Virus record (IMG/VR): IMGVR_UViG_3300047509_000088
Span: 1-64,000 of that record
Length of the DNA: 64,000 nucleotides
Strand: one strand, 5' to 3'
From: a virus
How positions within the stretch are numbered: the first letter of the stretch is position 1; each line of letters starts with the position of its first letter. The notes under the pieces are model-generated. The model was not told the DNA's origin. It saw only the letters and a program-made list of their open reading frames with translations, and ran no database searches. The translations under genes were made by a program, and so were the position numbers. Shown here one piece after another: positions 46,425-48,017 of the stretch.

Positions 46425-46706
46425 CGCAGTCTCGATTGATTCGATTGATTCGAGCCGGTGATCTAGCCGGTGATGGCGCACGGCTGCCAGGTAGGACGTC
46501 ATCAGGATCGTCCCGACCTCGGTGGGGCGGTTGGCGACCATCTCGGGGTCGAAGCTGAACTGGTACTCGCCGCCGTACGGGTCCACGATCAGGACCATGA
46601 CCACATGCGCCTCACGGGCCGCCTGATGGAGGCTGGACGGGCGAGTCCTGGGCGGCTTGACGGTCCTAGCCGGCTGGTCGACTATTCGATTGGTCGGCTG
46701 ATTCAT
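46413..46706 (-). CDS. Hypothetical protein
   Basis: Coupled to the sortase gene. Confidence 0.45.
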   Translation of the reverse strand: MNQPTNRIVDQPARTVKPPRTRPSSLHQAAREAHVVMVLIVDPYGGEYQFSFDPEMVANRPTEVGTILMTSYLAAVRHHRLDHRLESIESIETARTP

Positions 46707-47290
46707 CTCGAATCCTCGATCTTCTTGGTCCAGAGCCATCGCCAATCCAGGCGGGCGATCACCACCGTCCTCCGATCATACGTCCCCGCCGCCTGATCCC
46801 ACGCCCCAGCACAGGTCAGTAGCGAGATGATCGAGGCCCCGTCCGGGCTGAACAGATCGGCCAGGTCAGAGTTGTACGGGACCGACCTGACTGAAACGAC
46901 GTGATAAACGAGGTCATACCCGGTTAGGTCGTCAATCTGGATAAGATCCCCAAGCTTGAGCTGATCGAGGTGAGAGAAGACGGCCGGAACAATCTGGGGT
47001 CTACCCGTCTGTCTGTTGAGAGGTCCGTACCAGTCAAGATGTCCTGCCATGACCGTTCCGCCAGACTGACCTGGCGACTGTCCGAGTGACCACCAGGCTA
47101 CGTCCTGACCGTTCGTAGGAACCCCCATCCGTCCAGCCGAGTCCTCGCCTACAGGAACAACCGGAGCGCTGACTCCAAGGGCGGGTATGACTATCCGGGC
47201 AGGAGCCTGGATAGACGGAGGAGCGGCGGCCACGTCGGCCACCGCTCCCTGAACCTGGATCGCCGCCAGTATAGCGCCGAGCAGGATCAT
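46703..47290 (-). CDS. Class F sortase
   Basis: N-terminal hydrophobic segment; P.RI.IP.LGV.APV, VAWW, PG..G..V.AGH.D, F..L..L..GD.I, LLTC.G, Y..R (His-Cys-Arg triad). Confidence 0.9.
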   Translation of the reverse strand: MILLGAILAAIQVQGAVADVAAAPPSIQAPARIVIPALGVSAPVVPVGEDSAGRMGVPTNGQDVAWWSLGQSPGQSGGTVMAGHLDWYGPLNRQTGRPQIVPAVFSHLDQLKLGDLIQIDDLTGYDLVYHVVSVRSVPYNSDLADLFSPDGASIISLLTCAGAWDQAAGTYDRRTVVIARLDWRWLWTKKIEDSR

Positions 47291-47312
47291 CCTCCCTCTC
47301 ACGGTCGACCTT

Positions 47313-47762
47313 CTATCCCGGGTCGACGCCCGTGGCCGGCGCCAGGGGAACAACCGTCCGACGGACCGGGTGGACGACAACCGGAACATCAACGTCCTCA
47401 ACCGGCACCGGGACAGTCACGACCACGGTAACCGGCGGGGGAGGCGTCGCAACCGGCGTCGGGACTGGCGTCGGGACGGGGGTAGGAGTGGGGGTGGGAA
47501 TGGGCGTGGGGCACTTGTACTCGCAGGGCGGCGGCGAGCACTTGGGCTGATGATCGCCGGTGGTGGTCGCGACGACGCACGGCGGCGGCTTGCAGCCATG
47601 CGTATCGGGACAGGGGGTCGGACAGTAGGTCGAACAGGGCGGGTTGCCGGCGGCGGCGCTGACCACCCCGAACCCAACCACGCCCATCAGACCGAGGATC
47701 GCGGACAGAACGATTGAACCAATTGAACGAATTGGACCGACTGAACGAATTGATCGCTTCAT
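47313..47762 (-). CDS. Secreted Cys/Pro-rich putative sortase substrate
   Basis: Signal peptide ending SAAA, 8-Cys domain, PT stalk, C-terminal LAPATG; leaderless promoter TG-T-TATGGT. Confidence 0.75.
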   Translation of the reverse strand: MKRSIRSVGPIRSIGSIVLSAILGLMGVVGFGVVSAAAGNPPCSTYCPTPCPDTHGCKPPPCVVATTTGDHQPKCSPPPCEYKCPTPIPTPTPTPVPTPVPTPVATPPPPVTVVVTVPVPVEDVDVPVVVHPVRRTVVPLAPATGVDPG

Positions 47763-48017
47763 GCCGGGGACCATAACACGAAATCATCCGTTAATCCGTG
47801 CCGAGTTTTGGTCGGACCCGTCAATCAGGAAGACAAGCGGAAACAGACATGTCGTCAGGACCGTCATCAGAGCGGCGTACAGCTTCTCGCGAAAGTCATC
47901 CGGCCGGGTGGTCGGGCGATTGGGGAGTGGGGCGTGGATCATCTCTTCCTTCTATCTCGGTTAAAGGTCTATCCGGATTGAGCAGCCAGGCAAGCCAGCG
48001 CAAGACAAACGTCCCCG

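Follow-up and report, generated by a model that had tools for sequence, protein, structure and literature searches.

The 64,000 nucleotides studied here (the window) are bases 1-64000 of IMG/VR record IMGVR_UViG_3300047509_000088, a record of 95,370 bp rated 92% complete, which is viral: among its genes are those for a major head protein, a portal and the large terminase subunit. Two genes stand next to each other on the window's minus strand, the first for a small, predicted exported protein that ends in a sortase donor motif followed by only four residues, the second for a divergent class-F-like sortase (Table 1). A first-pass annotation of this DNA had already recognised here a phage-encoded sortase with an intact His-Cys-Arg triad adjoining a secreted protein, and this part of it is fully borne out, both genes lying on the minus strand where it had placed them.

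The gene pair

The upstream gene codes for a protein with a basic N-region, a hydrophobic stretch ending in VSAAA and then G43-NPP. Its eight cysteines are at positions 47, 51, 55, 61, 66, 79, 84 and 88, and its C-terminus reads VPLAPATG-VDPG-stop, in which an LPXTG-like pentapeptide, APATG, is preceded by Leu (LAPATG, residues 144-149). The predicted scissile bond is T148-G149, spanned by the peptide VPLAPATGVDPG, and the tail behind it contains neither a hydrophobic segment nor a basic residue. The first-pass annotation had described this same arrangement (an eight-Cys Pro-rich domain, a Pro-Thr (PT) stalk, PATG plus four residues, neither anchor nor basic tail), and the translation confirms it. 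Its further statement that the unit is leaderless is not supported, the substrate ATG being 9 nt past the stop of an upstream open reading frame (ORF) of 52 amino acids (aa), with no promoter-like site found before it. As to the cleavage site VSAAA|GNPP that it proposed, the hydrophobic stretch ending in VSAAA and the following G43-NPP are indeed there, but AAA|G is one of three adjacent allowed sites (VSA|A, SAA|A and AAA|G, judged by eye and only by the -3/-1 rule), which would leave Ala, Ala or Gly at the mature N-terminus.

Several overlapping ORFs are found in this GC-rich stretch, and third-position GC peaks in that of the substrate (0.74, against 0.61-0.66 in the others). Its product is also the only credible sortase substrate of the 95-kb genome, no other ORF having both such an ending and an export signal. 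Pfam and NCBIfam contain no family for it; 1.84 billion representatives, scanned in full with HMMER, contained nothing at an E-value of 1e-10 or better (the best match of the same size is unrelated), and word-indexed and ESM Atlas searches returned low-complexity PT-repeat matches only. Its ESM Atlas model is disordered or extended, with a predicted local distance difference test (pLDDT) of 0.50, and no YPKN-like pilin motif was seen on reading the 153-aa sequence.

Only 22 nt separate the substrate stop from the sortase ATG at 47290. The enzyme matches Pfam Sortase PF04203 (peptidase family C60) at E 8e-17 and 61.6 bits, against a cut-off of 26.6 bits, over profile positions 1-124 of 125, and its catalytic H84 (AGHLDW), C160 (LLTCAG) and R174 (YDRRTVV) align with the conserved columns. 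The class F label of the first-pass annotation stands in so far as the NCBIfam class F model (NF033748) is the best class model, at 92.3 bits versus at most 24 for the general sortase model and classes GN, C and E; it does not stand as a formal assignment, the score being below the curated cut-off of 166 bits. On the same model the relatives in its clade score 93-140 bits (all sub-cut-off), a Thermomicrobium enzyme named class F scores 112 and a Streptomyces enzyme 185. An AlphaFold2 model of the sortase has a pLDDT of 82 and a predicted template-modelling score (pTM) of 0.75, Foldseek against the PDB gave sortases only among the matches listed (E down to 2e-9), and in the model the enzyme has the eight-stranded beta-barrel of the sortase fold. 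By sequence even the nearest solved structure is distant (best E 0.004), and the only close relative of the enzyme is P0004, 63% identical and encoded on a 1,873-bp NCBI contig. A complex prediction with sortase residues 25-195 and substrate residues 112-153 gave a score of 0.01, which we count neither for nor against the pairing. We think that the 153-aa protein and the class-F-like sortase are very probably substrate and enzyme.

The two ends of the sortase call for some comment. If the ATG start is right, the N-terminus resembles a cleavable signal peptide (ILLGAILAAI...AVA|D). The ATG at 47290 is directly adjoined by AGAGGGAGG. The frame is open upstream to a TTG at 47401 (a 232-aa extended ORF), so that the enzyme may begin earlier, with a very basic N-terminus encoded partly within the substrate gene. 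The C-terminus (residues 183-194, 46703-46745) is a predicted Trp-rich amphipathic helix, DWRWLWTKKIEDSR, which only its one close relative, P0004, has as well and which could be an interfacial membrane anchor.

Table 1. The two genes of the cassette, the parts of the substrate and the adjoining ORFs, by position in the window
Feature	Coordinates	Strand	Basis
Substrate gene, 153 aa, predicted exported, Pro/Thr/Val-rich, 8 Cys	47313..47774	-	ORF and translation
Residues 1-42, predicted signal peptide or perhaps signal anchor, MVPGMKRSIRSVGPIRS, with SAAA after a hydrophobic core of 21 residues	47649..47774	-	read from sequence
Cys-rich, Pro-rich segment, residues 43-88	47511..47648	-	translation count
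PT/PV-rich extended stalk, residues 89-143	47346..47510	-	translation
Predicted sortase donor motif L144-A-P-A-T148-G149	47328..47345	-	translation; same place as [LA]PxTG / xxDTG of analogous loci
Predicted leaving group VDPG, four residues	47316..47327	-	translation; stop codon 47313-47315
Divergent class-F-like sortase, 195 aa	46703..47290	-	Pfam, NCBIfam, alignments, model
97-aa gene, function not assigned by Pfam	46413..46706	-	sequence; no Pfam family
Small ORFs, one hydrophobic helix each	47784-47942, 48264-48413, 48386-48571, 48564-48797	-	sequence
62-aa ORF without hydrophobic helix, between the first two small ORFs	48018-48206	-	

The short tail recurs beside related sortases

Since the substrate has no homologues, we inspected the neighbours of related sortases, and eleven tail-less analogues came to light (loci L002, L004, L008, L009, L012, L016, L024, L025, L035, L075 and L076; one locus, L047 of genome G043, was left out of every analysis). 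In two actinophage-like IMG/VR contigs (L002 and L004) a signal-peptide protein directly upstream of the sortase ends in IPSAIDTG-YAA or IPSNINTG-RAY. Dormibacteria-type genomes carry, beside their sortases, proteins ending in LPNTG-VQG (twice), LPSTG-GGGTA (twice) and LPSTG-AVA, as well as LPGTG-HPPPG and LPGTG-HPPTYK on lipobox-bearing solute-binding proteins. The latter (L012:4869-6170 and L016:4578-5903) have LPGTG plus 5-6 residues and lie just downstream of the sortase; of the two, L012 was scanned and matched Peripla_BP_6 at E 2e-50, L016 being judged by its likeness in sequence. These proteins would carry a lipid anchor at one end and a sortase tag at the other. Finally, in two JGI metagenome contigs (L075:53-280 and L076:2535-2741) precursors of 68-75 aa, directly upstream of the sortase, consist of a PT-rich stretch of ~45 aa behind a signal peptide and end in APDTG-RGE or APDTG-RAE.

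These endings are far more frequent than chance would have them. In 324 kb of sortase-flanking DNA, from which the window was excluded, a C-terminal [LA]PxTG followed by 2-6 residues was seen 10 times versus 1.2 expected from the overall density of the motif, and in nine of the ten the protein has a signal peptide and a sortase for a neighbour. The same genomes also have sortases whose neighbours carry a canonical tail (motif, hydrophobic segment, basic end), and in two further viral contigs APETG leads into a hydrophobic segment with a basic tail behind it. The tail-less ending is thus a recurrent natural form of the sorting signal.

We also considered whether the short tail of the window is the remnant of a longer one. 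Reading on past the substrate stop gives KVDREREDDPARR..., which by our own reading is non-hydrophobic. A frameshifted or read-through anchor was discarded, the frame past the stop being hydrophilic and the next hydrophobic stretch being the sortase's own N-terminus. Truncation or an assembly artefact was likewise rejected, because the short tail recurs independently in many loci and the read-through contains no hydrophobic segment.

Two observations on the actinophage-like contigs may be added. Both have an Amidase_2 endolysin ~1 kb downstream of the sortase (L002:5465-6316 and L004:1766-2683), and in L002 a collagen-repeat protein is encoded just upstream of the substrate.

Relatives of the sortase

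Among cellular genomes (GTDB) the closest sortases, at 40-47% identity, are those of Dormibacteria-type metagenome-assembled genomes and of single such genomes labelled Terriglobales and Bacillota, followed by sortases of Chloroflexia and of the candidate phyla radiation at 34-44%. A metagenome scan gave no relative exceeding 42% identity, scans of viral contigs yielded four further sortase-bearing records only, and among GenBank phages there is no match either for the window sortase or for the sortase of the L002 phage. In a maximum-likelihood tree of 64 sortase domains the window sortase falls inside a supported clade of 17 rows (98/94), mostly Dormibacteria, and within it a 13-row subclade that contains the window sortase has six short-tail partners and no partner with a transmembrane tail. 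This weakly suggests that the host lineage may be Dormibacteria-type soil bacteria and that the subclade may be dedicated to short-tail substrates; we treat both ideas as weak because the window branch is long and the labels are not significantly clustered over the tree.

Many sortases of the clade carry lipoboxes and would, on that account, be surface-tethered. The idea that soluble sortases pair with tail-less substrates was dropped, many of the sortases with short-tail partners having lipoboxes or membrane anchors, just like those with transmembrane-tail partners. At one related locus (L038:1501-1956) a sortase homologue stands beside a canonical protein with LPATG and a transmembrane tail, but Phe has replaced its catalytic His (DGFLEW) and Ser its Cys (LVTSSS), which makes it look like a pseudo-sortase. 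Three other loci (L065, L067 and L070) have long ORFs in which LPQTG, MPATG or LPATG lies ~30 residues before a fused C-terminal sortase barrel, and this fusion is another anchor-free arrangement in the same phylum-level group.

The cassettes of named class F sortases were examined as well, in 12 plasmid sortase genes named in RefSeq (L082-L093; 11 as "class F sortase", one as "sortase") from Streptomyces, Kitasatospora, Arthrobacter, Rhodococcus, Cryobacterium, Planococcus and Thermomicrobium. All 12 have a signal-peptide protein immediately upstream with x[DE/RA][TA]G near its C-terminus (the motifs include GADTG, GVETG, HPETG, MPDTG, HVGTG and GVRAG), and in all 12 the motif is followed by a hydrophobic segment and an Arg-rich tail. 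The actinobacterial substrates among them share G-G-[VA]-x-[TA]-G (GGADTG, GGVETG, GGVRAG, GGVAAG), then the transmembrane segment and the Arg-rich tail, and their passenger domains include CHRD, DUF4397 and ice-binding types.

What the cassette may do

The reading that we prefer, and to which we give about one chance in two, is that the pair is a phage copy of the class F cassette, substrate gene then sortase gene, which would covalently attach a phage protein to the host envelope. Sec would export the 153-aa protein, and the sortase would itself be exported, or else be tethered to the membrane directly or through a lipid. Cys160 would then attack the T148-G149 bond of APATG with release of the tetrapeptide VDPG, and the carboxyl of the Thr would be passed to an amine of the host envelope, most likely that of a peptidoglycan stem peptide or cross-bridge, so that the infected cell would come to carry, covalently bound on its surface, an extended phage protein rich in Pro and able to form disulfides. 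The substrate might be retained near the enzyme by an uncleaved N-terminal anchor, by capture of its C-terminus at the translocon or by a confined wall compartment, and the phage might profit through receptor masking, superinfection exclusion or wall remodelling. The lack of a hydrophobic segment and a basic tail seems, from the comparison of loci, to be a lineage-typical variant of the sorting signal, present in other phages too, and not a defect. A membrane anchor is not chemically required: sortase chemistry calls for no more than motif and leaving group, and native S. aureus sortase A puts exogenous anchorless LPETG peptides into the wall (PMC4723074).

Several points weigh against covalent attachment to the envelope, and we wish to acknowledge them together. 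The substrate has no homologue among the 1.84 billion representatives scanned or in the word-indexed search, so that there are no true relatives in which its motif could be seen conserved. The class F score of the enzyme is under the curated cut-off, its branch in the tree is long (1.66), and the host is assigned from the tree of sortases only. When that tree is taken as a whole, the short-tail and transmembrane-tail labels are not significantly clustered (4 changes versus 5.2 in shuffles), and in about half of the related cellular loci the sortase has no substrate beside it. Lastly, work by Schneewind in 1992/93 is said to have found that in S. aureus wall anchoring is abolished without the hydrophobic domain and the charged tail; if removal of the tail abolishes anchoring there, efficient tail-less anchoring in the present case needs a retention mechanism such as those put forward above.

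A related scenario, unlikely in our opinion, turns the problem of retention around: the N-terminal hydrophobic stretch would remain uncleaved and hold the protein in the membrane, the sortase would fix the C-terminus to peptidoglycan, and the stalk would bridge the two as a membrane-to-wall tether. The hydrophobic core, with its 21 residues, is long for a cleaved signal peptide, and it is followed, on the other hand, by a good AxA site. The nearest structural look-alikes of the substrate are TonB-like proteins with an N-terminal helix plus a Pro-rich spacer, but these matches (template-modelling score only ~0.3) are weak and low in complexity. N-terminal anchoring and a short C-terminal tag do co-occur, because the solute-binding proteins L012 and L016 carry both a lipobox and the tag; most other short-tail substrates, however, have ordinary short cleavable signal peptides.

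It is rather improbable that the sortase is a dedicated endopeptidase, which would trim VDPG by hydrolysis of the acyl-enzyme and leave the protein released or held non-covalently at the surface. Sortases are established to hydrolyse their substrates when no nucleophile is available, nothing holds this substrate at the membrane, and the enzyme may be soluble, given an N-terminus like a cleavable signal peptide. Yet it is hard to see what a propeptide of four residues would be for, related cassettes whose substrates have full transmembrane tails point to transpeptidation as the function of the family, and the lipoboxes on many related sortases indicate enzymes tethered to the surface.

The first-pass annotation had put forward another outcome: once signal peptidase has laid bare Gly43, the sortase would link Thr148 to that N-terminal amine, either within one chain, for a disulfide-rich cyclic protein, or between copies, for a covalent polymer running head to tail. 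Sortase-mediated ligation and cyclisation have been done in vitro with anchorless substrates, although we know of no natural cyclisation by a sortase. There is something to be said for the idea: the allowed site AAA|G leaves a Gly, sortase A is established to accept an N-terminal Gly, a donor motif without anchor means that soluble donor and acceptor could meet, and the gene pair is self-contained. Nevertheless, the two neighbouring cleavage sites would leave Ala, and there is no homologue in which a conserved Gly1 could be seen. The conservation of Gly1 that the idea leads one to expect was not found in the 11 tail-less analogues either, whose predicted mature N-termini are, by inspection, Gln (L002, L004, L075, L076), His (L008, L009), Ala (L024, L025, L035) or a lipobox Cys (L012, L016), never Gly, and the lipoprotein substrates of L012 and L016 cannot cyclise through a free N-terminus. 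With no Gly in the analogues and three cleavage sites equally plausible, a same-chain nucleophile giving a cyclic or polymeric product is not supported, and a self-sufficient ligation system with the mature N-terminal amine (be it Gly43 or Ala) as acceptor is, in our view, very improbable. A wall-anchored coat, which the same annotation had named as an alternative, fits better than cyclisation.

That there is no functional link at all, the 153-aa ORF being a chance frame in GC-rich DNA or an unrelated secreted protein with a coincidental xTG ending, hardly deserves credence: the stretch does contain several overlapping ORFs, the protein has no homologues and TG arises by chance within the last 10 residues of many ORFs of the genome, but against this stand the predicted signal peptide, the best third-position GC of the competing frames, the position in a class F cassette, a motif of the class seen at 11 other loci, and the fact that no other ORF of the phage has both an export signal and such an ending.

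Setting in the viral genome

The cassette lies in a minus-strand block of replication genes. The 97-aa gene that follows it would be translationally coupled to the cassette, because its ATG overlaps the sortase stop (ATGA). Directly upstream, on the same strand (within 47784-48797), are 3-4 small single-pass membrane ORFs, and this group and the sortase pair may together form a membrane or envelope module.

Elsewhere in the record, a 1509-aa ORF (78817-83346, plus strand, outside the window) ends in GPTDTG-GDHD-stop, a substrate-like ending of xDTG plus four residues on a protein with no Pfam family and no evident signal peptide; this could be a coincidence, ~4% of ORFs having TG near their end. 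A 188-aa ORF (52577-53143, minus strand), which has no Pfam family, begins with a lipobox-like N-terminus (VVCLMAC|SG) and is possibly a phage lipoprotein.

The stretch is present in soil metagenome runs. Over 454 nt (46796-47249) and 191 nt (47336-47526), contigs of a second soil study are identical to the window, with no variants, and the same phage is therefore present in at least two soil data sets. A blastn search against GenBank phages gave no match for the DNA of the locus. Lysogenic conversion was considered as well and is not supported, because the 95-kb record (92% complete) was searched for domains of tyrosine integrases and serine recombinases and none turned up.

Implications

Class F sortases are widespread in soil bacteria, and the standard predictors of sortase substrates demand a hydrophobic segment and a basic tail. 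Tail-less substrates would thus be missed, and if the short [LA]PxTG-plus-3-6 ending works as a signal, some of the proteins on which these enzymes act have so far escaped notice. In that case the textbook need for membrane retention in sorting would also fail in these lineages. The phage cassette, with its two genes, offers a minimal system for the study of donor motif, acceptor and retention, and it supports the idea that phages covalently remodel the surface of their hosts. Should cyclisation prove true after all, we would be dealing with a natural sortase-made macrocycle or with a fibre coating the infected cell.

Comparison with known systems

Close to the window stand the chromosomal and plasmid class F cassettes (NF033748) of Actinomycetota and relatives, for instance Streptomyces, Arthrobacter, Rhodococcus and Thermomicrobium roseum. 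The window resembles them in its best class model, in the order of the two genes, with the secreted substrate immediately upstream of the sortase, and in a non-LPXTG-type motif ending in TG on substrates that are mutually unrelated. We take the place of the substrate gene as an empirical trait of the class and not as part of its published definition. The window differs in that the motif of all 12 cassettes examined is followed by a hydrophobic segment and an Arg-rich tail, whereas the window has only VDPG, scores 92 bits against the cut-off of 166 and is borne by a phage. As far as the sequences go, the layout of the cassette is normal for class F, and the abnormal thing about it is how little is left of the sorting signal. 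What class F sortases do physiologically is still called unknown, a quadruple deletion in Actinoplanes being without phenotype (PMC13251363), and the P. acnes enzyme is the only one of the class that has been characterised (PMC13251363, PMC8225981).

The 11 short-tail loci share with the window a divergent class-F-like sortase, an adjacent exported protein and an ending of [LA]PxTG or xxDTG plus 3-6 residues. Their passengers are unrelated (solute-binding lipoproteins, proteins of 190-430 aa, PT peptides of ~45 aa), and the Cys-rich passenger of the window is unique. The actinophage-like cassettes among them lie ~1 kb upstream of the Amidase_2 endolysin, while that of the window sits among replication genes. 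In a bounded literature search, which is no proof of absence, we found no paper on natural tail-less sortase substrates. A parallel in chemistry is S. aureus sortase A with LPETG peptides (PMC4723074), where LPXTG and a few residues suffice as donor with no membrane anchor, as we propose for the window; the peptides are an artificial supply and the enzyme is of class A, in contrast to the natural gene pair described here.

As regards phages, a preprint of October 2026 reported the first phage sortases, 24 sortase B genes in huge phages of the gut (bioRxiv 10.64898/2026.10.24.761521). Like the window, these modules have an intact His-Cys-Arg triad and an upstream signal-peptide substrate with PxTG, and the role proposed for them is the display of a phage protein on the host wall. 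They belong to class B, to phages of more than 200 kb and to Bacillota hosts of the gut, and have a full sorting signal, whereas the cassette of the window is class-F-like, lies in a 95-kb genome from soil and is tail-less. To the phage sortases reported so far, class B enzymes of huge phages from the gut, the window adds another enzyme class, another habitat and another type of signal. What we describe is a phage-borne cassette of divergent class F type with a minimal-signal substrate, the signal recurring in uncultured soil bacteria and in phages.

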